Positions 1 to 51,435 of a stretch of DNA of 61,488 nt are shown here, in pieces. This DNA comes from an uncultured Planctomycetia bacterium (lineage in GTDB: Bacteria; Omnitrophota; Gorgyraeia; JABMRN01; RBG-13-46-9). The position numbers and the translations under genes were made by a program. Position 1 is the first letter of the stretch, and every line of letters begins with the position of its first letter. The notes beneath the pieces were generated by a model, which had not been told where the DNA came from, did no database searches, and saw only the letters and a list, made by a program, of their open reading frames with translations. The stretch spans positions 36,686-98,173 of the forward strand of contig CAYTQI010000002.1 of assembly GCA_964440235.1 (NCBI GenBank). Reading direction: 5' to 3'.

Positions 1-2
1 TA

Positions 3-3000
3 ACACGAAAAAGTATCGCAAAAGAGGCGGGGCTTAGTGAGCTTACGATCACAAACCGAAAAAAAGCCAACCCCGAAATAAAAGCGGCTATAGAAAAGGC
101 ATTGGTAGAAAGAGAGCCGTTTTCCGGAGATGGAAAGTTGATCAAAGGCACGGGTTCGGGCAGTGTTTATACGAATTTTTTAGGGGCAGGAAATTTACAG
201 CACTGGGGTGGAAAGTTGTTGCAATTGTTGGTGCGGTGTATAAGGAATTATTCCGGGATACTTGTGAAAAAACTTCACTACGGTGAAGTGGGAACGACAC
301 CTTCCTACCTGTTTTCGGAAAGGAATGATGCCCGGAACGGCCGGCCTCTGGCTTCGGCCGCGGAGGACAAGTTTCCCTTTGCCGCGGATAAAAATGCGCA
401 ACAAGGCCTTGTAACTTCAACTATATCAAAGGGTTCCGACGAAGTAAAACGTCCCCAAGTCAAAACCCAAGCCAAAATAGGTTATTTGCCAGGCAATATA
501 AATAGCGCACAGAGAGAAGACAGGGCTCCGGGCGATAGGTTGCTGTTCCCTATTTCCGGACAAGAAACGATGGCAATTTGGCCTGCGAGCTTTTCTTATC
601 ATGTTGATTCTATGCTGGCACCGTTAAAAGATAAGTCGTTTAGAGACATCGTGTTAATGGAACGCAGCCCGTTTATCAATGTCCGGCTCGTCAAGAAAAT
701 AATATTTCTTTTAATGACAAGAGAAGACGCCTTCAATCCTGAAACAGGGTACATGATAACGGCGGGCGGATGGAAATCGTTGGATTTACCTTTTATTTCC
801 GGAAGAAAAATTGACAAAATTGTGCGAACACAATCCTTCCCCGGGTTTATTAATGGTGAAGGCATGGATAATAAATTCGGAACAAAAAGTTTGGTAGTTA
901 TCAGAAAGAAATGGGGGAAGATTGTAGCGGAGATCCCTGAAAAAATAATGATAGAGGAGCTAATGCGCGAGGAGAACTTCGGCTTTCAAAGAAAGTTAGC
1001 CAGGGCGTTTAGGAGAAAACGCGGCGTTGTTGGTGTATGGTTTATTGATTACGAGAGATTACGCAACTCAATGCGCCTGCCTCTTGTTACAATTGAAAAT
1101 GCCCGTGATTTTGCCATGACCCTCCAATACAACAATACGAGATTATCGAGTGGCGCATTACTGGAAAAGGAAATTAAGAAAACGCAGGATTTGGCAGAGA
1201 TTGCCCGTAAGCACGGAAAAAAGTTTGTAGGCAGGTTTGATCTGCATGACTGGGGTTTTACCGATAAGACATATAGCTTACGCCCAATGCTTGGAGAAGA
1301 GGGGGAACTTGTTGGCGTTTTCAAAAGATTTTTTCCCGCGGAAAACTGGAGTGTTAAATATTTAAAAAACGAAAACAGGGGTAGTATTGACCCATCTACA
1401 AGTGATCCGTTTGGACCTACGCTTTATGTATATACTGGCACAGAAAATGATAAGGAAAAAATCCCCATAGGAAATATGGCGGAAAGAAAAGGGCTTTATG
1501 AAAAAGTCGCGCGTGAGACGCGGGAATTCATCGCTAAACATAGAAAAAATTTTTTGAAAAACGGTTTAGAAATAGTTACGTGTATGGGGCACGCCTTTGA
1601 GGTTAAACGTAGGTTAAAAAAATACGGGATCGAATCTGATTTGTTTTTCTGGATAGATGAGAAAATGCATTTGTATCATGTATGGGCCCGGACAGAAGAC
1701 GGTTACATAATCGACGCCTATACACTTGATGAAGGCATATCCCGAATATTAAGTTTTGATGAAGACAGGGAAAGCGAATATTCAGGTATTGAGATTGCAA
1801 AGTTTCCGGGGGCAAGCGAAGATTCGGAAAAATGGAACGCAATTGCGGCAAAACTAGAAAGAGAAGAATCGGCGTATAATAACCCGGCCGCGGTGAAAAG
1901 GACAAAAAGCCATGCCCTGCGCCCGGAAAGCCATCCGGGAAGCCGACATTTAAAAACGCCTTGTAAAGATTCCGGTACCTTGCTTTCCGCTAAAGCGCTT
2001 TCCGTTGCCTTGCCGGATAGTGTTGCGGCGGAAAAAAACACTTTCATAACAGGGGCGGAAAAGCCCGTAAGAGAAATTTTTTACGCGAAGATGATGAAGA
2101 TTCTTCAAAACCATGGTTTTGAAAATGGTTTTACCCGGGAAAACCTGATAGGAATATACTTTAGCGAATTTGGCGAAAGACTTTTTATCCGGGATGCCGA
2201 TACTTTCATACTTTATGCGTTAAAAATAGGCTGGATCCGGAATTACCCGGACAGAGAAAATGTTTTTATTTTTACGCAGGAGTGGGATAAATGGGTTTTA
2301 AGGGAAGAGGAGCCGACTTTTAACGTGCAGGACGCCGGAATTTTTTCAGATGAGGCGTTGCGTTCTTATTTATGCGAAATTATTCGGCCGGGCATGGACG
2401 TTGCCGATATGGGCGCGGCTCACGGACAAAGAGCGGTAGTGTCGGCGCGTTTAGGCGCCCGCGTAGACGCGATTGAAATACATAGAATGACCCTGCTTGA
2501 AGCTATTGAGAGGTTCAAAGCCCAGCCGGCTGAAATTCGCGGGCGTATTCGCGCGGTATTAAGCGATCTTTTTGAAAATTCTTTGTTGCGTGGCAAAAAA
2601 TATGACGTGATAGTTTTTTCACCCCCGAGAGTCAATGAAAAAAAACCATCACTCGCTTCAGATTTCAGAAGGATCATTGAAGACCATGAATTCAGGCTTT
2701 TAGGCCGCTTTCTTGATGAGGCAAAACTTCACCTGAAAGGCGACGGGAAAATAGTTCTGGCATACGGCATTGACGATGAAATCGGCGATGAAGACGGCCA
2801 TGTTTTTATGGGCGGAATGCAGACTTTGGCGCGCCTCGGCAAAGATGTATGGACGATGCGTAGGGTTTCTTCAGATCCCGATGCTTTTTTCGCGATTTAT
2901 GAACTCACCTTTAAAACGGCAAAACCGTTAGGATCCGTCACGCTTTCGGAAGGAAAGGAGTCAGCTAATCCAGCGCTCCGGCGGAAAACAGCGTGGCTTG

Positions 3001-4280
3001 AAAGTAAATACGGGGATAAGTTAAGGGATTGCTATACAAAATCCCCCGATGAGTTTTTACGGTTTACAGATCCGGATAATCTTGCTCAACCATTTTTCGC
3101 AGCGATAACTACGGGAGTATCAGGCGAAGTAATTGGTTCAGAAGAAGCCGAGTTTTGCAATTACATTATAGTCCTGGATAAGATAAGAAAAAAAGCCGCG
3201 TTAATTCATACGGATAATTATAAATTTTTGACGAATGCTGAAAATGCCTTGAAAAAAACCTGTAAAATGCTGGATCTTGTTTTGGGAGAAAGAGATTATA
3301 TAGAAAAAAATACTTTAGCAATTATCGCGAAAAGGCCGGCTATATCCGGGGAAATATCCGACGTCACCGCTTCTAAGATTGAGGCACTGTTCAAAAAAGC
3401 CGCTAATAATCTTGGCCTCCCGTTGCTGGAAACAGATACAAGCAGGCACTGGATAAAAAATAAAGTAGTATTTACGGTAGATGAAGGATCGTTACTCGCG
3501 TTGTCCCCGGAAGGAACGGTTTTGCGCTCCATTGATATGTATGAGATGGAGAAAAAAGGCAGATTTGCGGAAAGAAGGCCGGTACTTCGTAACTTCAGTG
3601 AGCCTGAACAGCTGGCAGAGAACTGGAAAGAAGCGGCGATTTCTACGCTGCTTTCGGGAAGAAAAATCGCGTTGTTTTTCAGCCGTAAATTAAGGGGCTA
3701 TGATAAGCATCACCCGCAGCTGCGGGATGATATAGAAAAATGGAAAGAAAATATGACGCGAAAATACCCCCGCTCTCGCAGCTTGATGAACAATTTGATC
3801 ACAGGGGATTTTGAGACACTCGAAGAGCTGAATACGTCTCTGGAAGGGTTGCGGGAGGAGCGCGGGGTAGATTTAAGCGATCAAAGCAAAGATTTTATCT
3901 TTACATTCGAGCCGGAAAACGAGAAAGTTGGCGCGGAAAATCTACCGAGGGCATTAAGGCCCGTTTATATAAAAATTAAGGAAAAGAAAAATGGAGAATT
4001 CAGAACTAATGAATTCTATGATCCGAGCCTGGATATATTAACGATTTCGGTCATGGCCGCGTTTTTCGAACTCAATGCCGATGATATATATCGTATTTTC
4101 GAAGGTATCGGGATAAACAGGCGGAAACTCGAAGAAGATATGAACATATGCGGTATCGACGAAGATAAAAATGGAAACGCATTTCTTATCTTTACCGTTA
4201 TTCCGCGCGCAAAGGCTTATGAGCATAATGGGATGAGAAACCGCAACAAGGTCAGGGCGCAATTTACCCGCGCCGCATAA
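3..4280 (+). CDS. Large orphan multidomain protein, 5'-truncated by the window (>1425 aa): HTH, papain/transglutaminase-like C-H-D motif, class I SAM methyltransferase, CheD/YfiH-like C-H motif, C-terminal domain ending FTRAA
   Basis: The frame is open from base 3 (TRKSIAKEAGLSELTITNRKKANPEIKAAIEKAL precedes the ORF-track TTG at 102). Motifs: TCMGHA...HVW...YIIDA; DVADMGAAHG...DAIE...SDLFE...IVFSPP; EFCNYIIVLD...AALIH. Confidence 0.85.
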   Translation, partial: TRKSIAKEAGLSELTITNRKKANPEIKAAIEKALVEREPFSGDGKLIKGTGSGSVYTNFLGAGNLQHWGGKLLQLLVRCIRNYSGILVKKLHYGEVGTTPSYLFSERNDARNGRPLASAAEDKFPFAADKNAQQGLVTSTISKGSDEVKRPQVKTQAKIGYLPGNINSAQREDRAPGDRLLFPISGQETMAIWPASFSYHVDSMLAPLKDKSFRDIVLMERSPFINVRLVKKIIFLLMTREDAFNPETGYMITAGGWKSLDLPFISGRKIDKIVRTQSFPGFINGEGMDNKFGTKSLVVIRKKWGKIVAEIPEKIMIEELMREENFGFQRKLARAFRRKRGVVGVWFIDYERLRNSMRLPLVTIENARDFAMTLQYNNTRLSSGALLEKEIKKTQDLAEIARKHGKKFVGRFDLHDWGFTDKTYSLRPMLGEEGELVGVFKRFFPAENWSVKYLKNENRGSIDPSTSDPFGPTLYVYTGTENDKEKIPIGNMAERKGLYEKVARETREFIAKHRKNFLKNGLEIVTCMGHAFEVKRRLKKYGIESDLFFWIDEKMHLYHVWARTEDGYIIDAYTLDEGISRILSFDEDRESEYSGIEIAKFPGASEDSEKWNAIAAKLEREESAYNNPAAVKRTKSHALRPESHPGSRHLKTPCKDSGTLLSAKALSVALPDSVAAEKNTFITGAEKPVREIFYAKMMKILQNHGFENGFTRENLIGIYFSEFGERLFIRDADTFILYALKIGWIRNYPDRENVFIFTQEWDKWVLREEEPTFNVQDAGIFSDEALRSYLCEIIRPGMDVADMGAAHGQRAVVSARLGARVDAIEIHRMTLLEAIERFKAQPAEIRGRIRAVLSDLFENSLLRGKKYDVIVFSPPRVNEKKPSLASDFRRIIEDHEFRLLGRFLDEAKLHLKGDGKIVLAYGIDDEIGDEDGHVFMGGMQTLARLGKDVWTMRRVSSDPDAFFAIYELTFKTAKPLGSVTLSEGKESANPALRRKTAWLESKYGDKLRDCYTKSPDEFLRFTDPDNLAQPFFAAITTGVSGEVIGSEEAEFCNYIIVLDKIRKKAALIHTDNYKFLTNAENALKKTCKMLDLVLGERDYIEKNTLAIIAKRPAISGEISDVTASKIEALFKKAANNLGLPLLETDTSRHWIKNKVVFTVDEGSLLALSPEGTVLRSIDMYEMEKKGRFAERRPVLRNFSEPEQLAENWKEAAISTLLSGRKIALFFSRKLRGYDKHHPQLRDDIEKWKENMTRKYPRSRSLMNNLITGDFETLEELNTSLEGLREERGVDLSDQSKDFIFTFEPENEKVGAENLPRALRPVYIKIKEKKNGEFRTNEFYDPSLDILTISVMAAFFELNADDIYRIFEGIGINRRKLEEDMNICGIDEDKNGNAFLIFTVIPRAKAYEHNGMRNRNKVRAQFTRAA

Positions 4281-4380
4281 CAGCGTAACAATCTTATTAA
4301 TCAACGAACTATGTCAACCGTCTAGACTGAAAAGGATTAGCCGGTCGTGATTAGGATATCAAAAAGTTTGATTACCCGCC

Positions 4381-4409
4381 TTGACGCTTTTGCAGTTTTC
4401 AGGTATACT
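4381..4409 (+). promoter_or_regulatory. Sigma70-type promoter
   Basis: TTGACG (4381-4386), 17 nt spacer, TATACT (4404-4409). Confidence 0.7.
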
Positions 4410-4427
4410 TAATTTGAGCCCGGAAAA

Positions 4428-4462
4428 GCCTTTAAGTCGTTTTGACCGAAAGGCAGTTTTTT
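4428..4462 (+). terminator. Terminator-like hairpin in the leader of the 4515 gene (possible attenuator)
   Basis: GCCTTT-aa-GTC-gtttt-GAC-cg-AAAGGC followed by AGTTTTTT. Confidence 0.45.
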
Positions 4463-4514
4463 ATTTTTTGTAATTAAAAAGATTTAAAAAGTGTTTGTAA
4501 GGAAGGGGTTTGAA

Positions 4515-4874
4515 ATGAGAGAGTTAATATTCAAGAACCTGATGGCCCCCGCCGCGAAAAAAAGGGATATTTCAGTCGAGGAAATAGTGGAGAAGAACGG
4601 CCTGGTTTCCTCCACAACTAAAAGGTCCATATACTTTGTGCGCGGTTCTCACAGAATCAAGTCCAGGGATGAATTGAAGCACTGGATAGATCGGCGAAGA
4701 AAAAACGCGGGCTTGAATAAGAAATTTTTTCATATTCTACGCGAATATTCAGACCGCGACAAGAAAGACAAGCTAATGTGCAAGATGAGAGGTTCGTTCT
4801 ACGTGATTTCCGGTGAATCGGTATATAACATAGTTTTTGTGCACGCGATAAGGATAAGAATAAGTAGATCATAG
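4515..4874 (+). CDS. Hypothetical basic protein (~119 aa)
   Basis: ORF downstream of a good promoter. ATG at 4515 follows GGAAGGGG and is preferred over the GTG at 4491. No recognisable family. Confidence 0.7.
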   Translation: MRELIFKNLMAPAAKKRDISVEEIVEKNGLVSSTTKRSIYFVRGSHRIKSRDELKHWIDRRRKNAGLNKKFFHILREYSDRDKKDKLMCKMRGSFYVISGESVYNIVFVHAIRIRISRS

Positions 4875-4888
4875 CAGAAAGCGGCAAA

Positions 4889-5023
4889 ATGGATTTGTAT
4901 CATCTGCACCCGGAACACGCGAAAGGCCTGATACACATGCTGATATTTCTTGCGGTCCTTTTTAAGGTTCACGTGATCGACAGGAAAATAAGCATGCTTG
5001 AGAAAACAGTCATAAACAAATAA
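4889..5023 (+). CDS. Small 44-aa putative membrane protein (below the ORF-track cutoff)
   Basis: MDLYHLHPEHAKGLIHMLIFLAVLFKVHVIDRKISMLEKTVINK has one hydrophobic stretch and fills the gap between the 4515 gene and the terminator. Confidence 0.5.
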   Translation: MDLYHLHPEHAKGLIHMLIFLAVLFKVHVIDRKISMLEKTVINK

Positions 5024-5057
5024 AGCCCGCGAAAAATTTTTAAAACGGGGCTTTTGG

Positions 5058-5090
5058 GAGGGGCGTAAAGTTTACGCTCCTCTTTTTTTT
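5058..5090 (+). terminator. Rho-independent terminator
   Basis: GAGGGGCGTAAA-g-TTTACGCTCCTC followed by T8. Confidence 0.8.
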
Positions 5091-5188
5091 GATGAAACCG
5101 TGATTTGCGGTAGACACAAGCGGTTGCTGTAAATCATAAATTCAAACTAAACCGGACGGCGCAAAGCGCCCGAAGAATCTCATTTTAT

Positions 5189-5217
5189 TTGACTATGGCC
5201 TGTATATATGATAATAT
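5189..5217 (+). promoter_or_regulatory. Sigma70-type promoter for gpsA
   Basis: TTGACT (5189-5194), 17 nt spacer, TAATAT (5212-5217). Confidence 0.5.
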
Positions 5218-5223
5218 TTGGCT

Positions 5224-6216
5224 ATGGTGAAAACGCCAATAGCTGTTCTCGGAGACGGTGGATGGGGGACGACCGTAGCAATACTCCTTGCCAATAAGGG
5301 GTATGATATCACCGTGTGGGGGGCGTTTCCTGATCATATATCAGTTTTGAAAAAAGAAAGGATTAACCGGAAGTTTCTTCCCGGAATACAGATACCGGGA
5401 AGGATTCGCTTTACATCCGAGGCGGCCGATGTAAGAAAATGCTCGATAGCCGTAATCGCGGTGCCGTCAAAATACCTGCGTAGTACACTGAAAATATTTG
5501 AAGGAAAAATCGCCGAGAAAGCGGTTTCGCTTACGAAAGGTATCGAGGAAGATACTTTTAAGAGGCCTTCCGAGGTTATATATGATGTTTGCGGCCCTAT
5601 TAAAATAGCGGTTGTTTCTGGTCCGACAATATCATTTGAGGTAGCGCGCGATCTTCCCGCTACTGTTGTCGCGGCCTCCCCGGACAGGGCGTTTGCCGGG
5701 GAAATACAGAATATTTTTACAACTCCGAATTTCAGGGCATATACCTCCGTGGATGTGATTGGCGTGGAGCTCGGAGGCGCTTTAAAAAATGTAATAGCTA
5801 TCGCGGCCGGCATTTCTGACGGAATGGGTTTTGGCGTAAACTCAAAAGCGGCGCTTCTTACGAGAGGTTTGGCCGAGATTATTCGTTTCGGGGACAAATT
5901 AGGCGCGAAAAAAGAAACATTTTTCGGATTAAGCGGATTGGGCGACCTTGCCACGACTTGCATGAGCGACCATTCGAGAAATCGCTGGTTCGGGCAGGAA
6001 ATCGCCAAAGGAAGGAAACCGAAAGATGTACTTGGGGGAACCGATATGATAGTTGAAGGCGTGACTACGGTCAGGTCCGCTTACGAATTGTCTAAAAAAA
6101 ACGGGGTAGAAATGCCTATAACGCAGAAAATTTATGAACTTTTATATCGCGGTAAAAAGCCGGAAGACGCTGTAAGGGAGCTTATGACACGGGCTCTTAA
6201 ACAGGAGGAATTATGA
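5224..6216 (+). CDS. gpsA: NAD(P)H-dependent glycerol-3-phosphate dehydrogenase
   Basis: GDGGWGT Rossmann motif, GVELGGALKNVIAIAAG, GLSGLGDLATTC...SRN. Confidence 0.97.
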   Translation: MVKTPIAVLGDGGWGTTVAILLANKGYDITVWGAFPDHISVLKKERINRKFLPGIQIPGRIRFTSEAADVRKCSIAVIAVPSKYLRSTLKIFEGKIAEKAVSLTKGIEEDTFKRPSEVIYDVCGPIKIAVVSGPTISFEVARDLPATVVAASPDRAFAGEIQNIFTTPNFRAYTSVDVIGVELGGALKNVIAIAAGISDGMGFGVNSKAALLTRGLAEIIRFGDKLGAKKETFFGLSGLGDLATTCMSDHSRNRWFGQEIAKGRKPKDVLGGTDMIVEGVTTVRSAYELSKKNGVEMPITQKIYELLYRGKKPEDAVRELMTRALKQEEL

Positions 6217-7502
6217 GAGTTGTTAATGTCGGGCTTATAGGGTTCGGAACCGTCGGCAAGGGCGTTGTAAAGGCGCTTCTTTCCAAAAAAGGAATTCTTA
6301 AGGTGAAATCCGGTATTTCCGTAAACCTGGCCAAGATTGCCGATAAGGATTTAAGGTCAGGGCGCGGTTTTAGTGTACCGGGAAAACTTCTTACCAGGGA
6401 CGTGGACTCGGTCATAAAAGATAAAGACATAGATGTCATCGTAGAGCTGATAGGCGGAATACACCCCGCGAAAGAGATTATCCTGAAAGCGCTATCGCTG
6501 GGTAAGCGGGTTGTTACGGCAAATAAGGCGCTCCTCGCCGAATACGGGATGGAAATATTTACCGCGGCGTCGCGTTTTCAAAGCTCGGTTGGATTTGAGG
6601 CAAGCGTTGGCGGCGGCATACCCATTATCGCCCCGTTAAAAAAATCGCTGGTGGCAAATGACATACAACTTATATATGGGATACTAAACGGCACTTCAAA
6701 TTTCATTCTTAGCAAGATGTCCGAGGAGGATTGTTCTTTTATTGAGGCGCTGAAAGACGCAAAGGAAAGGGGTATAGCCGAGAAAAATCCGAAATTAGAT
6801 ATAAGCGGCGGGGATTCGTGCCATAAGCTTGCTATACTGGCCTTGATGGGATTCGGATTTAATGTCAAACTGAAAGATATCTATGTTGAAGGTATCGAGG
6901 GCCTGGATCCGACGGACATGCAATATGCTAAAAACTGGGGATATGATATTAAGCTGTTGGCTATAGGGAAAAAAATCGGCAGTGCATTGGATCTCAGAGT
7001 CCATCCGACCCTGATTTCCCTGAAAAGTATTTTGGCGGGCGTAAAAGGCGAAAATAACGCTATATTTGTCAGGGGTGACATGGTCGGGGAAACGCTTTTT
7101 TACGGCCGGGGCGCCGGCAGCCTTCCGACCGCGAGTTCCGTTGTGGGTGATATTATGAAAATCGCCGAAAGTATAACCGCGAAAATCCCGGCACAACCTT
7201 TTAAACCGGAATTCAACGGAAGTATTAAAAAAATACGAAAAATCAATGATTTGAACGTCAGGTATTATATCAGGTTTTCCGCCATTGACAGGCCCGGTGT
7301 TTTGTCCAGAGTTTCCAGTATACTGGCGCAAAACGGAATAAGCATAGCTACTGTTTCGCAGAAAGAAAGAAAAAAAGGCCAGCCGGTTCCTATAGTTATG
7401 CTGACACATTACGCGAACGAAGGCAGGATGAATAAGGCGCTGGCAAAAATAAAAAAATTACCGTTTATAACAAAAAAGCCCGTAGGAATAAGAATAGCGT
7501 GA
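6213..7502 (+). CDS. hom: Homoserine dehydrogenase with C-terminal ACT domain
   Basis: [42 protein letters not shown] motif [13 protein letters not shown]. Confidence 0.97.
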
Positions 7503-7507
7503 TAGGC

Positions 7508-8578
7508 ATGGGTGTAATAGAGAGATACAGAAAATATCTGCCCGTAACCGGTAAAACACCGATAATTTCTTTGAATGAAGGAGATACCCCTCTTGTAAGG
7601 GCCCCGCATATTGAAGAGCTGCTTGGCGGTTTTGCGGAGGTTTATCTTAAGTACGAAGGGTTGAACCCGACAGGTTCTTTTAAGGACAGGGGCATGACCC
7701 TTGCAATATCAAAAGTTGTTGAAGAGGGTTCAGGGGCGGTTATTTGCGCATCGACCGGGAACACTTCCGCTTCAGCGGCGGCTTACGCGGCCCGAGCCAA
7801 AATAAAGTGTGTTGTTCTCATACCTGAGGGTTCGATTGCCCTGGGGAAACTCGCGCAGGCGCTTATACACGGGGCCGAGGTTGTAGCGGTAAAAGGAAAT
7901 TTCGATGACTGCCTGAAACTCGTAAAAGAAATTACCGAAAAATACCCCATTACCCTGGTTAATTCCCTGAATCCTTACAGGATTGAAGGGCAGAAGACAG
8001 GCGCTTTTGAAATTTGCGATTCTTTGAAATGCGCGCCGGATTACCACGCTATTCCCGTGGGAAATGCCGGCAACATAACCGCTTACTGGATGGGATACAA
8101 AGAGTACAGGCAAGCCGGCCGGATAAATGCCCTGCCGAAAATGATCGGATTTCAGGCTGCCGGTTCCGCGCCTATAGTAAAGGGGCATGTTATAAAAGAC
8201 CCCAAAACCATAGCGACCGCGATAAAAATAGGAAATCCGGCCAGCTGGAAAAAGGCCGAGGCCGCGCGCGATGAATCGGGCGGGCTTATAGAAGCGGTAA
8301 GCGATGATGAAATTTTAAACGCGTATGAATTGGTTGCTTCGAAGGAAGGCGTATTCGTTGAGCCGGCATCGGCCGCGAGTGTCGCAGGGGTATTAAAGAA
8401 AGCGAAAGAGGGGTATTTTAAAAACGCAAACCGAAAACCGCGAGCCGAAAAACCGCGGATTGTCTGTGTATTAACCGGGCACGGATTGAAAGACCCCGAC
8501 AGGGCGATAGCGAGCGTTAAGAAACCGAGGGTGTTACCGGCAAAGTTAGACGCAATTATAAAAGAGGCCGGTTTGTGA
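7508..8578 (+). CDS. thrC: Threonine synthase
   Basis: [15 protein letters not shown] (PLP lysine), [38 protein letters not shown]. Confidence 0.97.
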
Positions 8579-8590
8579 TTATGAAGGCGA

Positions 8591-8729
8591 TTTTCACGGC
8601 GGGAATGCTTTATTAAATGCCGGGACGTAGCGCAGTTTGGTTTAGCGCGCTTGCTTGGGGTGCAAGAGGTCAGCGGTTCAAATCCGCTCGTCCCGACCAA
8701 CGGAATAGAAAACATTCCCGCCGGGAAAA
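8591..8729. repeat. 17-bp inverted repeat enclosing tRNA-Pro
   Basis: TTTTCACGGCGGGAATG (8591-8607) pairs with CATTCCCGCCGGGAAAA (8713-8729), 16 of 17 complementary. Confidence 0.8.
8621..8699 (+). tRNA. tRNA-Pro (anticodon GGG), CCA encoded
   Basis: Cloverleaf: acceptor CGGGACG/CGTCCCG, anticodon stem CTTGC/GCAAG with loop TTGGGGT, T-loop TTCAAAT. Confidence 0.97.
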
Positions 8730-8849
8730 TTTAAAGAAACGCGCTTGGGCGCAAGGAGTCAACGGTTGGAATCCGCTTAGCGGTGCCCGGTGTGATGCCG
8801 GAAAATTTTTACGAAGGGAAATTTATATTTAAGGCCGAAGGGATAAAAC

Positions 8850-10061: not shown

Positions 10062-10064
10062 TGT

Positions 10065-11702: not shown

Positions 11703-11722
11703 AAAGGGTAAGAACTAAAATT

Positions 11723-12943: not shown

Positions 12944-12953
12944 GGGGCAAAAT

Positions 12954-14525: not shown

Positions 14526-14535
14526 CCGGCAGATT

Positions 14536-18017: not shown

Positions 18018-18136
18018 TACCCCACACCGGGTTGATTTTGAGCGTAGTGAGGGGCATGGGGAATGCGGGCCCGTTAGATGTCTGCATTGAACGGGGCGCG
18101 GGAAAACCACATACGTAAGATTGTGGAGTGCAAAAA

Positions 18137-18994: not shown

Positions 18995-19001
18995 ACGCTT
19001 G

Positions 19002-20972
19002 ATGGGAAAATTTAAACTTGCCAGCGGTTATACCCCGAAGGGAGATCAACCGAAAGCGATCGATTGCCTTCTAAAAGGTCTAAGAAAAGGCGCTAAATAT
19101 CAGACGCTTCTCGGTGTTACCGGAAGCGGAAAAACATACACCCTGGCCAATTTAATTAAAAAACTGGAAAAACCTACCCTGGTTATATCCCATAATAAAA
19201 CCCTTGCCGCCCAGCTTTATACGGAATTCCGGGATTTTTTTCCCGAGAACGCCGTTGAGTACTTTGTAAGTTATTATGATTATTATCAGCCGGAAGCGTA
19301 CATTCCGCAGGCGGACATGTATATAGAGAAGGACGCTTCAATAAACGACGATATAGACAGATTAAGGCTTAAAGCCACAAGTTCGTTAATGTCCAGGGAT
19401 GACGTTATAATTGTCGCCAGCGTTTCTTGTATATATGGACTGGGTTCGCCGGAGGATTACGCAGAGATGCTTCTCACGCTGAAAAAAGGCGGCGTTTTTA
19501 CGCGTGAAAATCTTTTAAAAAAACTTGTTGAAATTCATTATGAGAGAAATGATGTGGAATTTCAGCGAGCGAAGTTCAGGGTGAGGGGGGAAACGATAGA
19601 GATTTTTCCGGCATATCTGGAAACGGCTTATCGTGTGGAATTGGATTTTGACAGGGTAAAAAGCATAAAGGAAATAAGCCCGCTTACCGGTAAGATTTTG
19701 AGACAGCATAAAAAAATAGCAATTTATCCGGCGAAACATTTTGTCACTACGCCCGGAAAGATAGGAAAAGCGCTTGGATCGATAAATAAAGAATTAGAGG
19801 AAAGGCTTGCCGTTTTTAACGCCGAAGGAAAGCTTGTCGAAGCCGAACGCCTTGCCTCAAGGACAAAATATGATATGGAGATGCTTCGGGAACTCGGGAT
19901 TTGTAACGGCATAGAGAATTATTCAAGGCACCTTTCCGGAAGGCCAAAAGGGTCGCGCCCGTGGTGCCTTATAGATTATTTCCCGGATGATTTTTTAACG
20001 ATAATCGACGAGTCACACGTTGCCATACCGCAGATAAGGGGGATGTATAATGGCGACCGAGCGCGGAAAGAAACGCTTATTGAATACGGTTTCAGGTTGC
20101 CGAGCGCGCTTGACAACAGGCCTCTTAAGTTCGGGGAATTTACGGAGCTAACGAAAGAGATGGTATTCGTTTCGGCTACCCCGGCGGAATACGAAATGTC
20201 CAAAAGCGTAAACGTAGTCGAACAAATTATACGTCCGACAGGCCTTCTCGACCCTCCCATATTAGTAAGGCCCATTGAAAACCAGATAGATAACCTTGTC
20301 GGTGAGATAGAAAAGCGCGTAAAAAGAAAAGAAAGGACTCTCATTACTACACTGACGAAGCGCCTGGCCGAAGAACTTGCCGAATATCTCAGGGGCGAGG
20401 GCATAGAAGTAAGGTATCTTCATTCGGAGATAGGCGCGATGGAGAGGGTGGAAATTTTGCGCGACCTGCGGTTAAAAAAATTTGATTGCTTGGTGGGAAT
20501 AAATCTTTTGAGAGAAGGCCTTGACTTACCGGAGGTATCTCTTGTTGCCGTTCTGGACGCCGATAAAGAAGGATTTTTAAGGAGTCATAATTCCCTTATA
20601 CAGGTTGCCGGAAGAGCGGCGCGTAACGTAAACGGAACTGTCATAATGTATGCGGATAATATTACGCGATCTATGCGAAAAACAATCGAGGAAACACAGA
20701 GAAGAAGAAAACTTCAGATTGAATTTAACAAAAAACATAATATTACGCCAAAAACAATTAAAAAAGCCGTCAGAGACAGCATTGAGTCATACAGGCGGGC
20801 CAAGGAACTCATAAAGGATGTAGCCGGTGTTTATGATGACGAGTATGAACTGCGAAGCGTCATGGATAAGCTTGAAGACGATATGCTTCAGTCGGCGCGA
20901 AACTTGCAGTTCGAAAAGGCGATTGTATTTCGCGATCAGATTAAAGCTTTAAAACGGAAACTTAAAAAGTGA
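19002..20972 (+). CDS. uvrB: Excinuclease ABC subunit B
   Basis: LGVTGSGKT, FVSYYDYYQPEAY, GIENYSRHL, DESH, GINLLREGLDLPEV, C-terminal UVR domain. Confidence 0.98.
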   Translation: MGKFKLASGYTPKGDQPKAIDCLLKGLRKGAKYQTLLGVTGSGKTYTLANLIKKLEKPTLVISHNKTLAAQLYTEFRDFFPENAVEYFVSYYDYYQPEAYIPQADMYIEKDASINDDIDRLRLKATSSLMSRDDVIIVASVSCIYGLGSPEDYAEMLLTLKKGGVFTRENLLKKLVEIHYERNDVEFQRAKFRVRGETIEIFPAYLETAYRVELDFDRVKSIKEISPLTGKILRQHKKIAIYPAKHFVTTPGKIGKALGSINKELEERLAVFNAEGKLVEAERLASRTKYDMEMLRELGICNGIENYSRHLSGRPKGSRPWCLIDYFPDDFLTIIDESHVAIPQIRGMYNGDRARKETLIEYGFRLPSALDNRPLKFGEFTELTKEMVFVSATPAEYEMSKSVNVVEQIIRPTGLLDPPILVRPIENQIDNLVGEIEKRVKRKERTLITTLTKRLAEELAEYLRGEGIEVRYLHSEIGAMERVEILRDLRLKKFDCLVGINLLREGLDLPEVSLVAVLDADKEGFLRSHNSLIQVAGRAARNVNGTVIMYADNITRSMRKTIEETQRRRKLQIEFNKKHNITPKTIKKAVRDSIESYRRAKELIKDVAGVYDDEYELRSVMDKLEDDMLQSARNLQFEKAIVFRDQIKALKRKLKK

Positions 20973-21943
20973 AAAAAGAAGACCGGATATTAAGCTTGTT
21001 TAAAAAGAGTGGAAATTCTTTCCTTTCCGGCGAAGAGGTAAGCCGCGCGCTTGGTATTTCCAGGCAGGCGCTCTGGAAACATATAGAGAAATTGCGGGAA
21101 GCCGGCTATGTGATAGAGGCGGTGCCGCATCTTGGATATAAATTAATTCAGGCTCCTGATAAAATGCTTTCTTCCGAGGTAAAATGGAATTTGAATACGG
21201 AAATTATTGGAAGCGAGATTCATTTCTATGATAGCCTCGGTTCCACTAACACCGTCGCTTATGAACTGGCTGAACATGGCGCTGGGGAAGGGGCCGTTGT
21301 TATAGCGGAAGAACAGACAAAAGGCAAGGGCCGGCTTGGCCGGTCCTGGATTTCACCTGCAAAAGGAGGAATTTATCTTTCGTGCGTCCTTAGGCCCGAT
21401 ATTTTGCCGAACGGGGTTTCAAAGATCACACTCGTGGCGGCGGTAAGCGCGGTCAAAGCCGTGCGAAAATTTTCAGGCCTGGACGCCTTGATAAAGTGGC
21501 CGAATGACATACTGGTTTCTGACAGAAAAGTCGCTGGTATACTTACGGAATTAAGAGGCGAATCCGACAAGGTGGATTTTATCATATTGGGGATTGGTAT
21601 AAACGTAAATACAGCCCGAAAAGTGTTGCCGGCGGGCGGTACCTCCCTGAAAGAAGAAAGCAAATCTTCCACGGATTTTTCAAGAGTGGAACTTGTGAAA
21701 ATCCTGTTAAAAGAAATGGAGTCGGAATACGTGAAATTCAAAAAACACGGTTTCGCGGCCGTAAGAAGCGAATTGAAAAGTTATTCCTGCGCGCTGGGAC
21801 GCCATGTCACTATAAATGCCTCAGACGGTATAAAATCGAGCGGTAAGGCAGTTGATATTAATGAGAATGGCGCTCTTGTGATAAAAACGGAAGACGGGTT
21901 GAAGAAAGCTTTTTTAAGCGGTGACGTGACACTGGTGAGGTGA
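20969..21943 (+). CDS. birA: Bifunctional biotin operon repressor / biotin protein ligase
   Basis: N-terminal HTH (SGEEVSRALGISRQALWKHIEKLRE), QTKGKGRLGRSW, IKWPNDI, KVAGILTE. Confidence 0.95.
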   Translation: MKKEDRILSLFKKSGNSFLSGEEVSRALGISRQALWKHIEKLREAGYVIEAVPHLGYKLIQAPDKMLSSEVKWNLNTEIIGSEIHFYDSLGSTNTVAYELAEHGAGEGAVVIAEEQTKGKGRLGRSWISPAKGGIYLSCVLRPDILPNGVSKITLVAAVSAVKAVRKFSGLDALIKWPNDILVSDRKVAGILTELRGESDKVDFIILGIGINVNTARKVLPAGGTSLKEESKSSTDFSRVELVKILLKEMESEYVKFKKHGFAAVRSELKSYSCALGRHVTINASDGIKSSGKAVDINENGALVIKTEDGLKKAFLSGDVTLVR

Positions 21944-22054
21944 TAACATGAGTTATTGTGAAAAAAAATTTTCATTTTTAAATCCCCGGCCGCAACTTCT
22001 TTTATCCGGTTCAGGAAAGAAAATGACTCAAAAGAGGCCTCAAAGGACTAACTA

Positions 22055-22822
22055 ATGCTATTGGCTGTAGATATAGGGAACACGAATATTAACTCAGCGG
22101 TAATAGACAACAAGGGAAAGATCCTAAAAAAATTCACAATAAACCCCCATTCCACTGACGCAGTGGAACGGGGGTTCCACTGCGTCAGTGGAACGGGGGT
22201 TTCGCGGGGTTGGGAGATAGAAGAGGTGGTTATTGTGAGTGTGGCTCCTGAAATACTTAGAAAGGTTAAACGCGGTTTGAGAAAGCAATTCAGGAGGGCA
22301 AGGATAATCATTGTTGGCAGGGACGTAAAAGTTCCGATGAAATGCCTGTATAGTAAGGGGCAAATCGGACAGGACAGGTTGATTACCGCTTTTGCCGCTT
22401 CCTCGCTTTACGGTTTACCCGCATTGATAATAGATTTTGGTACGGCTGTTACCTTTGATGTTGTTTCCGGCAAGATGACATACCTGGGAGGGCTTATAGT
22501 GCCCGGCGTGAAAATGTCGCTTGAATCTTTGCATGACAGGACGGCTATGCTCCCAAAGACATATCTCAGGAAAACACGCTTACTCATAGGTAGGGATACC
22601 GCCTCAAGCATAAGAAGCGGGATGATTTACGGTTATGGTGCCCTGTGCAAAGGGCTCGTGAAATTATTCAAAAAGAAACTGGGGAAGAACATAAAAATAG
22701 TCGCTACAGGCGGTGACGCGCCGCTTTTGACCAGACACGTGCCCTCCGTGAAAAACATTGACCTGAACCTTTCCCTTAAGGGCCTTTATCTGCTGTCCAA
22801 AAAATTTCAAAAAAATACTTGA
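22055..22822 (+). CDS. coaX: Type III pantothenate kinase carrying a ~20-aa palindrome-encoded insertion
   Basis: LAVDIGNT, IGQDR, IIDFGTAVTFD, GGLIVPG, VATGGDA. Confidence 0.93.
   Translation: MLLAVDIGNTNINSAVIDNKGKILKKFTINPHSTDAVERGFHCVSGTGVSRGWEIEEVVIVSVAPEILRKVKRGLRKQFRRARIIIVGRDVKVPMKCLYSKGQIGQDRLITAFAASSLYGLPALIIDFGTAVTFDVVSGKMTYLGGLIVPGVKMSLESLHDRTAMLPKTYLRKTRLLIGRDTASSIRSGMIYGYGALCKGLVKLFKKKLGKNIKIVATGGDAPLLTRHVPSVKNIDLNLSLKGLYLLSKKFQKNT
22141..22202. repeat. 62-bp nested palindromic element inside coaX
   Basis: AAACCCCC-a-TTCCACTGACGCAGTGGAA-cggggg-TTCCACTGCGTCAGTGGAA-c-GGGGGTTT. The two 19-mers are exact reverse complements of each other. Confidence 0.95.
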
Positions 22823-22846
22823 CAAAAACCGCTTATTTTGTATAAT
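22819..22846 (+). promoter_or_regulatory. Sigma70 promoter of groES-groEL
   Basis: TTGACA (22819-22824), 16 nt spacer, TATAAT (22841-22846). Confidence 0.85.
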
Positions 22847-22856
22847 ACAGAATTTG

Positions 22857-22883
22857 TTAGCACTCTATAATACAGAGTGCTAA
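22857..22883 (+). promoter_or_regulatory. CIRCE operator (HrcA site)
   Basis: Perfect TTAGCACTC-N9-GAGTGCTAA upstream of groES. Confidence 0.97.
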
Positions 22884-22926
22884 TTTTTACCAGTTGATTA
22901 AAAAGTGAAAAAAAGGAGGTAAAGGT

Positions 22927-23214
22927 ATGAAGGTGCAACCGTTGGGTGATCGGCTTTTAGTTGAGGTGCTCGAAGCGAAGGATAAGACAAAAGGGGGAAT
23001 AGTCCTTCCCGATACGGCGAAGGAAAAACCGCAGGAAGCTAAAGTAATTGTCGCCGGAAAAGGGAAAATTAACGAAGACGGAAAAGCGGTTCCGTTGCAG
23101 GTCAAGGCCGGGGAAAAAATTCTGTTCGGAAAATATACGGGCACTGAAATAACCGTTGACGATAAAGAATATTTGATTTTGAAGGAAGAAGACGTTTTAG
23201 CGATTGTTAAATAG
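22927..23214 (+). CDS. groES: Co-chaperonin GroES
   Basis: [44 protein letters not shown]; GGAGG Shine-Dalgarno site. Confidence 0.98.
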
Positions 23215-23227
23215 CTTTAAGTCGTAA

Positions 23228-24892
<1,665 letters not shown>

Positions 24893-24964
24893 TCAACCGG
24901 CCTTGTCGGTTGACTCGTCAATGATGCCAGCCAGACAGGTTGTGCGATAAGTTGTAAAAGCAAT

Positions 24965-24998
24965 ATAGGGCGGGTTGCCAAAACCCGCCCTATTTCTT
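24965..24998 (+). terminator. Rho-independent terminator after groEL
   Basis: ATAGGGCGGGTT-gccaa-AACCCGCCCTAT followed by TTCTTT. Confidence 0.85.
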
Positions 24999-25105
24999 TA
25001 TCCAGTTTGCCTATTTCAACCGCGGCAGCTTAACAGCTTGCCTGTGTTAGGAAAAAAATAGTAAGTAAGGTTTTACATTACCGTGACATTTCGAAAATAA
25101 ATTTG

Positions 25106-25114
25106 TGATATACT
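25106..25114 (+). promoter_or_regulatory. Candidate extended -10 promoter for the 1113-aa gene
   Basis: TG-a-TATACT about 50 nt upstream of the ATG, with no clear -35. Confidence 0.4.
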
Positions 25115-25163
25115 ACATGAAAATCGCAGTGTAAAAATTTACTAAAAGAAGAAAAATAAAAAA

Positions 25164-28100
25164 ATGAAAAAAATATCGGCAATCGTTACGATCTTGTGCT
25201 TTTTATCGGGCAATGTAAGTTTTGCGTTTGATGCCGACATAAATAACGCGCCACATTACGGCGTTAACCTGGCGGCTAATTACGCTACCGATGATATCTT
25301 ACCGGGAGACCACACCATCGGCATGATAGAGCTTGAGATGCAGCTTAGGCTTATTGAGAGTAAACGCGGCCTGATTCCGCCAGGCGAGAGTGAATTAAAA
25401 GTGGAATTCTTAAAAAACGCCAGACAGGCAAAAACATTAGGGGACGCCGGTCAAATAAGAGTAAAACACGGCGAAAACAAAATTGATATTTATCCGGCCC
25501 AACTAAAACTTATTGATGACTTAATATGCCGCATTCCCGTATCCATAACGAGAGGCAATGAGAGAACAGAGGATTTTCGATTGCTGTTTTCAATCCGGCC
25601 GTTTGAAGATGACGGAAAAACAATATACCCCATAGCACCGGATACGGATGAAGCATTGCGGTTATTAAACGAAGCCGTTGAAAGAGAGGAAAATAATACG
25701 GGCGAAAAAACAAAATCCGAAACAAGGCGCCCGGAAACAGCTGACAGCGGCCCGGAATTAAAACTCGATGCGAGCGGTGAAATCAGCCATGACAATAAGG
25801 CGACGCGGAAAAGAACCGGCCCCGGCGGGCGCAAACGTGTTACAAGCGGAACAAAACTTGTTCCCGATGAAACTTATGTGTGGAGTGAAAAAAACGGAAT
25901 AGGCCTTTTTCGCAAAGGCAGCTTTCAAACGCGGCTTACAGTGCGTTTTTGGCGCGAAGATGGCACGTATCGTGACGTGGAACTGACAAAAGCCTCATTT
26001 CTTTCAGGTGGGCTTCAACCCCTTTATCTTGCTTTGCCCGAAGACATTACAGCACTTATGAATTCTTTGAGCATAGCTGATGATAACAAAGAAAAATACC
26101 AGGAAAAACGCCGTAAAATCGGCAAAAAAGCTAACGGCGTATTAAGGAATAGCCGAGGGCCCGCCGGCGACCATATTAGCTTCCAGGTCTTTAGTTTTTT
26201 TCAGCGCATAGAAGATTATAATGCTCCGAATGTTAGCGATGGTGAACTGACAAAAGCCGAATCTATAATTAAAAAAATAGAAGATGTTAGAAAAGCGCGG
26301 GATAACGGGATTTACGATCATTTCAGGCATGCCACATCCGTGGAGAGGCTAATTATTTCCCTGTTATTATCATTTCCTATCCAAACAGTACTTTCCGTTC
26401 ATTCGATTCGGAATTATATAAAAAAACAAGGATTGAATAATTTAAAGGCAACACTTAAGGGAAAATTAAATGCGCAGGGTAAAATCAAAGATGAAGTTAT
26501 AGAAGATATTATAACAGGAACGAAAAGATTATTTCGGGAAGAAAAAAGTAATACATACGGATGGAAAGCGTGGATTGCAAAACATCATTCCGAAGAAAAC
26601 CCTTTTGACGTAATCGAACGCTGGGTAAGGGACGCGATTCCGGTTGTGGAAAGCATCCTGAAGCACGAGCTCCTGGCGGATGATCCGGCAAATCCTGCCG
26701 AAGAACAGGGGCCTGGGATTATGAATGGCGTAACGCCCGAGGGAGGCCGGCCCGATAAGAGCGCCCAAGCGCCTACCAAACCCCGCGATGAAAGAGGCAG
26801 GTATAAGGAAGAAGAAGGAAAGAGCCCGGAAGGTATTTTAAAAGTTATCGCGGTATATCTGCCGCAGCAGGCACTTTTCACAGCGCGGGATATTTTTGAA
26901 ATATATAAGGCGCATTATGAAGAGCATGGATTTGAGGCTCCCGCGGAAAATTCCGAATCGGCGCTTCGCACAATAAAAAGGGATTTGCATGAAAAATCCG
27001 ATTCGCTTGTAAATCAAGGAATTTTAGAGATTTTTCCCGAAAGGGGTAAAAATGGAGAATATCTTTATCAATTAACGCGAAAAGGCGCAGCGAAAATTGT
27101 ATCGATAAGGGGTAAATATGAGGCGGAAAGGGAAAGGTTGGCCGGAACGGCAGCCCTTACGGATTTGGCGCGAAAAGCCGTTTTTGGCGAAATACAGCTC
27201 GATAAATGCCTAAAGCACGGCAATAAACCAGAATTAAAAAAAGAGCCGGAAGTTAGAGCTCAAATTCAAAAAGCGCGGCGAGAATTTAACCAATTACTGG
27301 CAACCGTTAATGACATTGACACACTCCGGCGCGTTCTGAACTCTTTAGAATCGTTTCAAAGCAGCGCAAGCGAAAAAGAGGGAAGCGAGAAAGGTTATTA
27401 TGCGCCTTATGTCGCACAGGCGCGGTTACGAATACTGAGTGTTCCGATAGGGCAATTAGGGTTTTCAGCAAAGGCGCGTAATGTATTAGAAAAGATAGGC
27501 ATTAAAAATCTCGGTGATTTGATTGAAAAAGGAATAACTGAAGAAGACATTTTGAAACATAGTAATATCGGCCGGAAAACTGTCAGCGAAATATACGGTA
27601 TGCTCGCGCGGCTCGGCGAAAAATTACCGCCTATAACAAAAGCCGATGTTTCAATAAAGGATGCGGGCCTTTCCGTAAGGGCTCATAAAGTATTGAAAAG
27701 TATGGGTATTAAAGATCCCGCCGAGTTGCTTACGAAGGGAATAACCGAAGAAGACATTTTGAAACACAGGAATATCGGCCGGAAAACTGTCAGCGAAATA
27801 TACGGTATGCTCGCGCGGCCCGGCGAAAAATCGCTGTTTACAGCGAACCAGTCCGGCGAATCTATAACCGGCACGGTTACGGGAGAATTTCCTACGGCAG
27901 ATCTCCTTCATTTAATGCCCGGTGAAAACGCGGGTGATGTGTCAGGATCCGCAGTGTCGTATACGGATAGAGAAAAAAAGGCGCTTGCGAAGTATGATAG
28001 AAACGGATTGGATAGAGAGCGCCTGGCGGAATCGTTAAGCGCGTTATTGACGAGAGAGGTAATAATTGATGACAATTCCGCGTTTATTTTTTCCGAGATC

Positions 28101-28505
28101 GCGACTTTCGGGCGATATAACGAAAAAAACGAGTATGAATTCGGATTGATAAGATTGCTTCCGAAGCTTGCGGAAGCCGGTATTAAGGTTGCGGTTATCG
28201 CAAGAAATGACGCGCAGCGAAATTTTATATCTAAACTCAATGAGGGAAAACCTGAAAGAGAGAGAATAGGGTTCGGTAATAGTATAGCCGAAATGAAACC
28301 CGATTTACAAGTAGCCAGGTGTTATTATCTAAAGGTCGAAAACGATGAGCCGGTACCGGGTGAAAGCTTAGGCTTTGTAAGCGTTTGCGACATAACGCAT
28401 ATCGTAAAACAAATCGTTAAAAATCTGGGCAGAGCCTGCGGTGTTGTCAACGAATTATTACCGGATCTATACCGCGCGGCACAAAAATTCAGTCAGGCGG
28501 CATAA
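25164..28505 (+). CDS. Orphan 1113-aa protein: signal peptide, winged-helix-like domain, two tandem RNA polymerase alpha-CTD-like domains, C-terminal domain ending FSQAA
   Basis: N-terminus MKKISAIVTILCFLSGNVSFA. Repeats GFSAKARNVLEKIGIKNLGDLIEKGITEEDILKHSNIGRKTVSEI and GLSVRAHKVLKSMGIKDPAELLTKGITEEDILKHRNIGRKTVSEI match the alpha-CTD pattern LSVRxxNxLKxxGIxTIGDL...EEDLLKxxNxGRKSxxEI. Confidence 0.9.
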   Translation: MKKISAIVTILCFLSGNVSFAFDADINNAPHYGVNLAANYATDDILPGDHTIGMIELEMQLRLIESKRGLIPPGESELKVEFLKNARQAKTLGDAGQIRVKHGENKIDIYPAQLKLIDDLICRIPVSITRGNERTEDFRLLFSIRPFEDDGKTIYPIAPDTDEALRLLNEAVEREENNTGEKTKSETRRPETADSGPELKLDASGEISHDNKATRKRTGPGGRKRVTSGTKLVPDETYVWSEKNGIGLFRKGSFQTRLTVRFWREDGTYRDVELTKASFLSGGLQPLYLALPEDITALMNSLSIADDNKEKYQEKRRKIGKKANGVLRNSRGPAGDHISFQVFSFFQRIEDYNAPNVSDGELTKAESIIKKIEDVRKARDNGIYDHFRHATSVERLIISLLLSFPIQTVLSVHSIRNYIKKQGLNNLKATLKGKLNAQGKIKDEVIEDIITGTKRLFREEKSNTYGWKAWIAKHHSEENPFDVIERWVRDAIPVVESILKHELLADDPANPAEEQGPGIMNGVTPEGGRPDKSAQAPTKPRDERGRYKEEEGKSPEGILKVIAVYLPQQALFTARDIFEIYKAHYEEHGFEAPAENSESALRTIKRDLHEKSDSLVNQGILEIFPERGKNGEYLYQLTRKGAAKIVSIRGKYEAERERLAGTAALTDLARKAVFGEIQLDKCLKHGNKPELKKEPEVRAQIQKARREFNQLLATVNDIDTLRRVLNSLESFQSSASEKEGSEKGYYAPYVAQARLRILSVPIGQLGFSAKARNVLEKIGIKNLGDLIEKGITEEDILKHSNIGRKTVSEIYGMLARLGEKLPPITKADVSIKDAGLSVRAHKVLKSMGIKDPAELLTKGITEEDILKHRNIGRKTVSEIYGMLARPGEKSLFTANQSGESITGTVTGEFPTADLLHLMPGENAGDVSGSAVSYTDREKKALAKYDRNGLDRERLAESLSALLTREVIIDDNSAFIFSEIATFGRYNEKNEYEFGLIRLLPKLAEAGIKVAVIARNDAQRNFISKLNEGKPERERIGFGNSIAEMKPDLQVARCYYLKVENDEPVPGESLGFVSVCDITHIVKQIVKNLGRACGVVNELLPDLYRAAQKFSQAA
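27531..27831 (+). repeat. 94-nt direct repeat (27531-27624 and 27738-27831), 207 nt apart
   Basis: Four mismatches over 94 nt; encodes the C-terminal halves of the two alpha-CTD-like units. Confidence 0.95.
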
Positions 28506-28511
28506 CATGTT

Positions 28512-28553
28512 TAGCGCATAGCGCTTAACGGACAGGGAGTAGAACACAGGGCG
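28512..28553. repeat. Degenerate heptamer tandem array
   Basis: TAGCGCA TAGCGCT TAACGGA CAGGGAG TAGAACA CAGGGCG. Confidence 0.5.
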
Positions 28554-51420: not shown

Positions 51421-51435
51421 GAGAAGCATGTTTTT

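Follow-up and report, generated by a model that had tools for sequence, protein, structure and literature searches.

What do two long modular proteins have in common when little beyond their last few residues is alike? The question is raised by a 61,488-nt stretch of contig CAYTQI010000002.1 from an uncultured bacterium placed in the Omnitrophota (positions 36,686 to 98,173; the whole of this stretch is called the window below), in which two genes encode large proteins, here protein 1 and protein 2, that end in F-[ST]-x-A-A. An earlier note on this DNA had put the ending forward as a candidate sorting tag by which an undescribed effector-export system would recognise both of these orphans. According to our analysis the tail is the end of a C-terminal domain (C-domain) of a large, Omnitrophota-associated and apparently undescribed protein family, in which two constant ends enclose variable passengers. 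Protein 2 is a full member of this family, while protein 1 is most likely a separate orphan whose last ~5 residues are alike by chance or convergence.

The family became visible through one relative of protein 2, P0002 (1401 aa, from a JGI metagenome), which was found by a word-indexed search. The N-terminal 161 residues of the two proteins, signal-like segment included, are 54% identical and their last 145 residues 35% identical, P0002 ending in ...AALLFAHAA; a repeated module of ~100 aa and the alpha C-terminal domain (alpha-CTD) of RNA polymerase are also common to both. A profile built from the C-terminal regions of these two proteins (last ~190 residues) and searched with HMMER against 1.84 billion representatives gave 155 clusters at E<=1e-3, of which 133 were at E<=1e-10. 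The matched proteins are 80-5057 aa long, and in nearly all of them the match reaches the last residue. When the matches were re-analysed locally, no more than one residue (0-1) followed the C-domain envelope in 147 of 151 proteins, so that homologues with unconstrained C-termini, which according to the note would have spoken against its idea, are not what is seen for protein 2. Members with source names come from metagenome-assembled genomes of Omnitrophica/Omnitrophota and are annotated as 'hypothetical protein' or after one cargo domain, and the guess of the note that the DNA derives from Omnitrophota fits these names as well as the genome match described below.

The ending itself is strongly kept. 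AA is found at the C-terminus of 108 of the 151 members (72%) and [AS][AV] in 138 (91%), with Phe at position -5; the pattern F-[AS]-x-[AS]-[AV] ends 115 of the 151, and protein 2 (KFSQAA) carries it. The consensus over 12 residues is L-H-E-A-A-R-K-F-A-[QE]-A-A. Over 146 domains, F1109 (93%), A1112 (83%) and A1113 (85%; numbered as in protein 2) belong to the best-conserved columns of the C-domain, together with F976, S977, F982, G994, L999, V1011, N1026, I1035, Y1055, I1084 and G1089. The domain comprises ~165 aa of alpha/beta type, and its AlphaFold2 (AF2) model from 29 sequences is confident (pLDDT 90.2, pTM 0.85): three beta-alpha units are followed by two strands and then by two helices. 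The tail forms the last helix, residues 158-174 of the 175 modelled (pLDDT ~82-88). As the closing helix of a conserved domain, it is no free tag common to two orphans. The conserved unit is therefore a folded domain of ~165 aa and not the five-residue tag that had been suggested. Neither PDB nor BFVD contained a Foldseek match to the C-domain at E<=1e-3. The weak matches were recurrently HAD-like (YrbI/KdsC, the LNS2 domain of Nir2 and HADs of giant viruses, TM-score 0.37-0.51), and the motif I-F-S-E-K-x-T-F on strand beta-1 (residues ~975-982, window 27987-28100) aligns with motif I of HAD proteins, DxDxT, but carries other residues in place of the Asp; we regard this resemblance as a lead only. 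No model in Pfam-A or NCBIfam covers either of the two end domains.

Protein 2 carries all parts of the family architecture, and the hidden Markov models (HMMs) of the N-terminal domain (N-domain) and of the C-domain both match its open reading frame (ORF) and no other in a six-frame translation of the window. Its parts are the following:

25164 to 28505, plus strand: protein 2, 1113 aa, a full family member with signal-peptide-like start, N-domain, cargo and C-domain; monocistronic.
25164 to 25226, plus strand: signal-peptide-like N-terminus MKKISAIVTILCFLSGNVSFA, with basic n-region, hydrophobic core and S-F-A site, recognised by eye.
25260 to 25658, plus strand: [N/T]-L-A-x motif (VNLAANY) and N-domain of class A, residues ~33-165 (HMM n0).
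25812 to 26696, plus strand: cargo module, residues 217-511, common to two further family members (phmmer, P0130 at 6.6e-25 and P0015 at 7.2e-11).
26751 to 27113, plus strand: cargo module, residues ~530-650, which recurs, often repeated, in ~13 family members (phmmer, P0002 three times, P0035, P0057, P0103 and others).
27426 to 27818, plus strand: two RNA polymerase alpha-CTD copies, cargo (Pfam PF03118, 2.2e-25, in two stretches).
27987 to 28502, plus strand: family C-domain, residues ~942-1113, alpha/beta (profile search; local HMM, E=1e-54).
28488 to 28502, plus strand: tail F-S-Q-A-A-COOH, with which the final C-domain helix closes.

The Sec-type signal that had been noticed on this complete protein was found again by inspection, as MKKISAIVTILCFLSGNVSFA followed by FDAD, with cleavage expected after S-F-A, and residues 2-28 form a helix in the AF2 model. 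The N-domain matches HMM n0 at E=2.7e-39. Among the passengers, the module of residues 217-511 has no Pfam match, and the module of residues ~530-650 looks winged-helix-like by eye. The alpha-CTD assignment is firm, with 88.6 bits for PF03118 against a gathering cutoff of 23.8, two copies, and PDB alpha-CTD matches down to 8.7e-06. The two copies correspond to a direct repeat of 185 nt with 80% identity (27440-27624 and 27647-27831), which is a duplication inside the cargo of protein 2.

The other constant end lies at the N-terminus. A signal-peptide-like start, with a basic stretch and then a hydrophobic segment, is present in 83 of the 99 members of at least 700 aa, and most of the remaining 16 look like fragments. 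Of these 83, 81 could be sorted into two N-domain classes, with 63 and 18 members. An [N/T]-L-A-P motif stands in the consensus sequences of both classes, a few residues past the predicted cleavage site, and its Leu (L36) is the sole invariant column of the class-A alignment (A5). The AF2 model gives a confident alpha+beta domain (mean pLDDT 84.9) in which the motif region is disordered (below 50). Foldseek returned nothing at E<=1e-3 for the N-domain and only weak NTF2/VirB8-like matches, which are again a lead only. Additional transmembrane-like segments occur in few family members. The only match to the N-domain in the genome collection was the chromosome of Candidatus Omnitrophota bacterium bin17 (CP070780.1, our locus L002), where 8001-8786 encodes the family signal peptide and N-domain (E=1.3e-37). 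No C-domain was found in this 16-kb locus, in which the ORF is interrupted by a masked stretch of 100 N, and the gene may be a relative with the N-domain only.

Between the two ends the passengers vary widely. The following cargo was identified by Pfam in other members:

P0005: phosphofructokinase (PFK).
P0009: MutS domain V (MutS_V), two copies.
P0013: pyruvate phosphate dikinase (PPDK).
P0023: GlpX fructose bisphosphatase.
P0029: SecA.
P0018: PfkB kinase, hexokinase and HAD.
P0030: glutamate dehydrogenase and leucine-rich repeats (LRR).
P0021: ATP-grasp, CoA-ligase and alanine dehydrogenase.
P0012: methyltransferase and HATPase_c.
Gene at locus L013: inositol monophosphatase (IMPase).

PPDK, the cargo of P0013, also occurs in the window as a canonical stand-alone enzyme of 941 aa (44629-47454), and this weakly suggests that the cargo enzymes are supernumerary, extra copies.

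The mosaic make-up described for both proteins was thus seen again, with two RNA polymerase alpha-CTDs in protein 2 and, in protein 1, repeats resembling winged helix-turn-helix (wHTH) domains together with a weak class-I S-adenosylmethionine (SAM) methyltransferase region. Translation also gave the reported C-termini, ...NKVRAQFTRAA for protein 1 (ORF open from nt 3 to 4280) and ...RAAQKFSQAA for protein 2, and AA ends none of the remaining 45 plus-strand coding sequences (CDSs) listed in the window. As had been stated, the C-terminal regions of the two proteins are not alignable, and BLASTP gave no similarity. The description of the sequence was accordingly correct. A likeness between the two gene ends, GCS-GCA-TAA-CA, is likewise present in both genes but carries no meaning: the gene of the homologue P0002 ends in GCG-GCG-TAA-AG, so the likeness simply follows from a stop codon preceded by two codons for Ala, and it was rejected as a signal. 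Of the proposed paralogous family of multi-cargo proteins, the part that concerns protein 2 stood, with its constrained C-terminus, signal-like N-terminus and cytoplasmic or DNA-binding passengers, whereas proteins 1 and 2 are not detectable paralogues. The features of protein 1 are:

3 to 4280, plus strand: protein 1, an orphan with no detectable family membership; its gene begins upstream of the window and encodes at least 1548 aa.
1 to 103, plus strand: last copy of the 168-nt wHTH-like repeat (blastn of L004 against the window; Tandem Repeats Finder (TRF), period 168, 2.8 copies).
2328 to 2768, plus strand: class-I SAM methyltransferase-like region, residues ~776-922 (NCBIfam 2.1e-08, PADLOC mad2 1.6e-14).
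4263 to 4277, plus strand: tail F-T-R-A-A-COOH, which resembles the family tail only.

With the neighbouring gene gpsA, near-identical contigs were retrieved from other samples. One of them, L004 (99.95% identical), reaches 368 nt further upstream, where the ORF of protein 1 is still open, and ends within a tandem-repeat array; two others, L005 and L006, end further inside the gene. Positions 1-471 of L004, with 1-103 of the window, consist of tandem 168-nt (56-aa) wHTH-like units, at least 2.8 copies with 91% matches (TRF; blastn), for which HTH_24 and DUF6262 gave sub-threshold matches. A gene call of 1338 aa for protein 1 (P0003) is an internal start. The methyltransferase-like region is recognised by NCBIfam far below the model cutoff (2.1e-08) and by the mad2 model of the MADS system in PADLOC (1.6e-14). 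Its motif IV reads SPPR as against (N/D/S)PP(Y/F/W), and the region may therefore be inactive or divergent.

Apart from the tail, every comparison of protein 1 with the family was negative. There was no match to the C-domain HMM with all filters off (hmmsearch --max, E<=1000), hhalign gave a probability of 0.8%, phmmer found no similarity to 150 family members, and the available 1548 aa contain no match to the N-domain HMM. A search with the full length returned only protein 1 itself, and neither a search with the C-terminal 299 aa nor a metagenome scan found homologues. A MAFFT alignment of three C-termini with protein 1 included was unconvincing, and on the negative results of BLASTP, the family HMM, hhalign and phmmer we rejected protein 1 as a family member.

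The likeness of the tails could still be compared with chance. Its form in protein 1 is F-[AS/T]-x-A-A, and with a position-specific scoring matrix from the last 6 (or 12) residues of the family, applied to ~405 non-family ORFs of ~160 kb of related DNA, its QFTRAA scored 7.6 bits (6-mer), the highest value among these ORFs and one between the 10th and 25th percentile of the family. Random peptides reach 7.6 bits at a frequency of 3.6e-4, or ~0.02 for ~46 CDSs, and the corresponding 12-mer score at 1.1e-3, or ~0.05. In 46 CDSs, the strict pattern F-[AST]-x-A-A at the C-terminus is expected ~0.003 times and a loose pattern ~0.05 times. These statistics are suggestive, not decisive.

The genomic surroundings of the family are of a housekeeping kind. 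The gene of protein 2 lies between groEL and a gene of the IMPDH family and is set off on both sides:

24965 to 24993, plus strand: terminator-like hairpin after groEL, upstream of protein 2.
28546 to 28575, plus strand: terminator-like hairpin after protein 2.

Other family genes lie among genes for tRNA synthetases, EF-G, ruvABC, fatty-acid synthesis and similar housekeeping functions. A locus scan with a narrower C-domain alignment gave 8 short contigs, and L013 has two family genes in tandem (3698-6283 and 6337 onward). As for the window as a whole, its ~47 CDSs and 3 tRNAs are all on the plus strand, a complete strand bias over 61 kb (tRNAs Pro-ggg at 8621, Arg-cct at 48897 and Pro-cgg at 61413). 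A run of envelope genes at 49855-55150 encodes an alginate-export-type outer-membrane protein, a DUF3047 protein, a HAMP-domain protein and an M48 peptidase, and a FadL/TodX-type porin at 59881-61146 confirms a diderm envelope. Within the gene of type III pantothenate kinase there is a 25-nt tandem repeat of 2.1 copies (22150-22201) with the internal palindrome TTCCACTG..CAGTGGAA.

What could two constant ends around such different passengers be for? The best explanation, which we hold tentatively and rate somewhat below an even chance, is that they are common handles for a shared sorting, anchoring or assembly step after Sec. The signal peptide would direct the polypeptide into the Sec route, after which a common machinery would bind the invariant termini and sort, anchor or assemble the variable passenger at the envelope or beyond it. 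The strict avoidance of C-terminal extensions points to a partner, for example a PDZ-type or other tail-binding protein, that reads the Ala-Ala end with its free carboxyl group. Omnitrophota are uncultured, ultra-small and probably host-dependent bacteria, for which a host-dependent or predatory lifestyle has been proposed. As many passengers are ATP-dependent and of cytoplasmic type, or bind DNA or RNA polymerase, their site of action would be a compartment that contains ATP, and delivery into a host or prey cell would bring them there; we infer that ATP-dependent and DNA-binding passengers make most sense in the cytoplasm of another cell, which fits the proposed lifestyle as well as the long multi-enzyme proteins with signal peptides that have been published for the phylum. 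A bolder version takes both ends as address labels of an undescribed, Omnitrophota-specific secretion or surface-assembly pathway that exports enzymes of cytoplasmic type (glycolytic kinases, PPDK, SecA, MutS) and modules binding DNA or RNA polymerase, plausibly into host or prey, with protein 1 as a possible second class of cargo bearing the same tail; in this full form the proposal is unlikely.

Several observations weigh against reading the ends as handles for export. In six genomic contexts no secretion, sortase-like, protease or PDZ gene was consistently found beside the family genes, and export machinery, a conserved neighbour and evidence of processing were not found there. Cleavage of the signal peptide and export of the proteins were predicted by eye. 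In the AF2 model the tail belongs to a packed helix, and its conservation may serve folding instead of recognition. A single ORF of 1862 aa at locus L017 (3-5588) carries the N-domain twice and internally; the domain is thus not strictly N-terminal, which does not fit a pure N-terminal address. The export of ATP-dependent enzymes is puzzling from a functional point of view. Finally, because the tail of protein 1 beats that of every other non-family ORF, protein 1 may yet have a link to the family. The interpretation given in the note thus stands in part, namely for protein 2 and its family, without the pairing with protein 1 and, as yet, without any export system.

The same evidence can be read differently. 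If the hydrophobic N-terminus were a membrane tether that anchors the proteins in the cell's own membrane, the C-domain, as a degenerate HAD/Rossmann-like fold, could serve oligomerisation, regulation or ligand binding and gather extra enzyme copies into assemblies at the membrane, with the tail kept for packing. Such an arrangement would leave the ATP-dependent cargo in the cytoplasm it requires and would agree with the recurrent HAD-like matches and the aligned IFSEKxTF strand, with a tail helix that is part of the AF2 model, with the lack of neighbouring secretion genes in the contexts examined and with one preprint that debates cytoplasmic-face topologies of long Omnitrophota proteins. The charges around the hydrophobic segment, basic before and acidic after it, predict an N-in/C-out orientation with the bulk of the protein outside; every structural match is non-significant (E>=1e-3), and packing alone leaves the near-absence of even one extra C-terminal residue unexplained. 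We consider the tether doubtful. That the short F-[ST]-x-A-A ending on its own is a portable sorting tag, placed on unrelated terminal domains including that of protein 1 and read by an undescribed effector-export system, is less probable still. It would account for the top rank of the protein 1 tail among ~405 ORFs (p ~0.02-0.05 for the window) and for the fact that protein 1, too, is large, modular and an orphan, its HTH and methyltransferase modules recalling part of the family cargo. Within the family, however, the tail always comes with the ~165-aa domain; in protein 1 no family domain was detectable, no homologues came up in our searches, the N-terminus lies beyond the available sequence, and no other non-family protein in the ~160 kb of related DNA has the strict tail.

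ClpX and Tsp/Prc recognise C-terminal ends with Ala-Ala or small non-polar residues, and it could be argued that the ending is an SsrA-like degradation signal for ClpXP, or is read by a periplasmic tail-specific protease, and so removes mislocalised or surplus copies or processes a precursor. The terminal Ala-Ala in 72% of the members and the small non-polar residues in 91% are what such proteases would read. However, the tail is predicted to be helical and to lie within a folded domain, not in a free extension, the conservation spans at least 12 residues and indeed the whole domain, and a constitutive degradation signal on ~150 large proteins would be costly. ClpX, Prc and CtpA are not among the annotated proteins of the window (~20 of 47, the window not being fully searched). 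This role is the least probable of those considered and is very unlikely.

For the Omnitrophota, the constant ends give a grip on proteins that have had no explanation, that is, long multi-enzyme proteins with signal peptides: here two end modules bracket ~150 combinations of cargo. They supply an HMM for cataloguing such proteins, experimental handles in the form of a short peptide and of a small domain with a confident model, and a route to the machinery via phylogenetic profiling. If the ends are indeed export or assembly signals, they would represent a new principle of substrate recognition in bacterial secretion, and they would also suggest that Omnitrophota transfer enzymes of metabolism and modules related to transcription to other cells. 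Whatever their role, two end domains without an entry in Pfam or NCBIfam merit family definitions.

Compared with known systems, the family is most reminiscent of the cargo of type IX secretion (T9SS) in Bacteroidota, which likewise combines a Sec signal peptide, very diverse passengers and a conserved domain at the extreme C-terminus. The C-terminal domain of T9SS cargo is reported to be an immunoglobulin-like beta-sandwich of ~80-100 aa (PMC11285876), whereas the C-domain here is predicted as an alpha/beta fold of ~165 aa; the phylum is another one, a conserved N-domain is added and the cargo is of cytoplasmic type. No T9SS C-terminal domain model of Pfam or NCBIfam matched, and no T9SS genes were seen. 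As fold, size, phylum and sequence all differ, we do not assign the family to T9SS cargo. Exosortase and sortase signals (PEP-CTERM, LPXTG and similar) are also unlike it: there was no NCBIfam match, and in place of a hydrophobic transmembrane segment the C-terminus has an amphipathic helix that closes with AA. Among the sorting-domain and defence families of Pfam, NCBIfam and PADLOC the only matches were at the level of single domains (alpha-CTD, PglW-like and methyltransferase/mad2).

A C-terminal Ala-Ala with a free carboxylate is shared with the SsrA tag, with C-motif-1 of ClpX substrates and with substrates of tail-specific proteases, but the Ala-Ala of the family is encoded in the genome and ends a folded conserved domain, whereas the SsrA tag is added co-translationally and is unstructured. 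With HAD-like Rossmannoid domains (KdsC/YrbI, LNS2), which gave the best though weak Foldseek matches, the C-domain has in common a three-layer alpha/beta core and a strand-1 motif placed like HAD motif I. In the family, Ser and Lys stand where DxDxT has its catalytic Asp residues, and the motif position reads S-E-K-x-T with Ser in 96%. With TM-scores of at most 0.51, E>=1e-3 and no Pfam HAD match on the C-domain, we do not count it as a HAD domain.

Closest by origin are the long 'multi-enzyme' proteins of Omnitrophota, in which, according to two preprints, signal peptides or transmembrane segments head methyltransferase, histidine-kinase ATPase, radical SAM, PPDK, hexokinase and SecA modules (West-Roberts et al. 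2023, bioRxiv 10.1101/2023.11.21.568195; bioRxiv 10.64898/2026.06.07.730766). A search for terms in the text of both found no mention of conserved terminal domains or of the tail, and no description of either end domain was found in the literature. Phylum and signal-headed strings of enzyme modules are the same as in our family, but those proteins are of at least 10,000 aa, whereas the members described here are mostly of 700-5000 aa and are defined by their two end domains. What is new here is this apparently undescribed pair of terminal domains, which defines a family of variable cargo and has a putative role as a handle.

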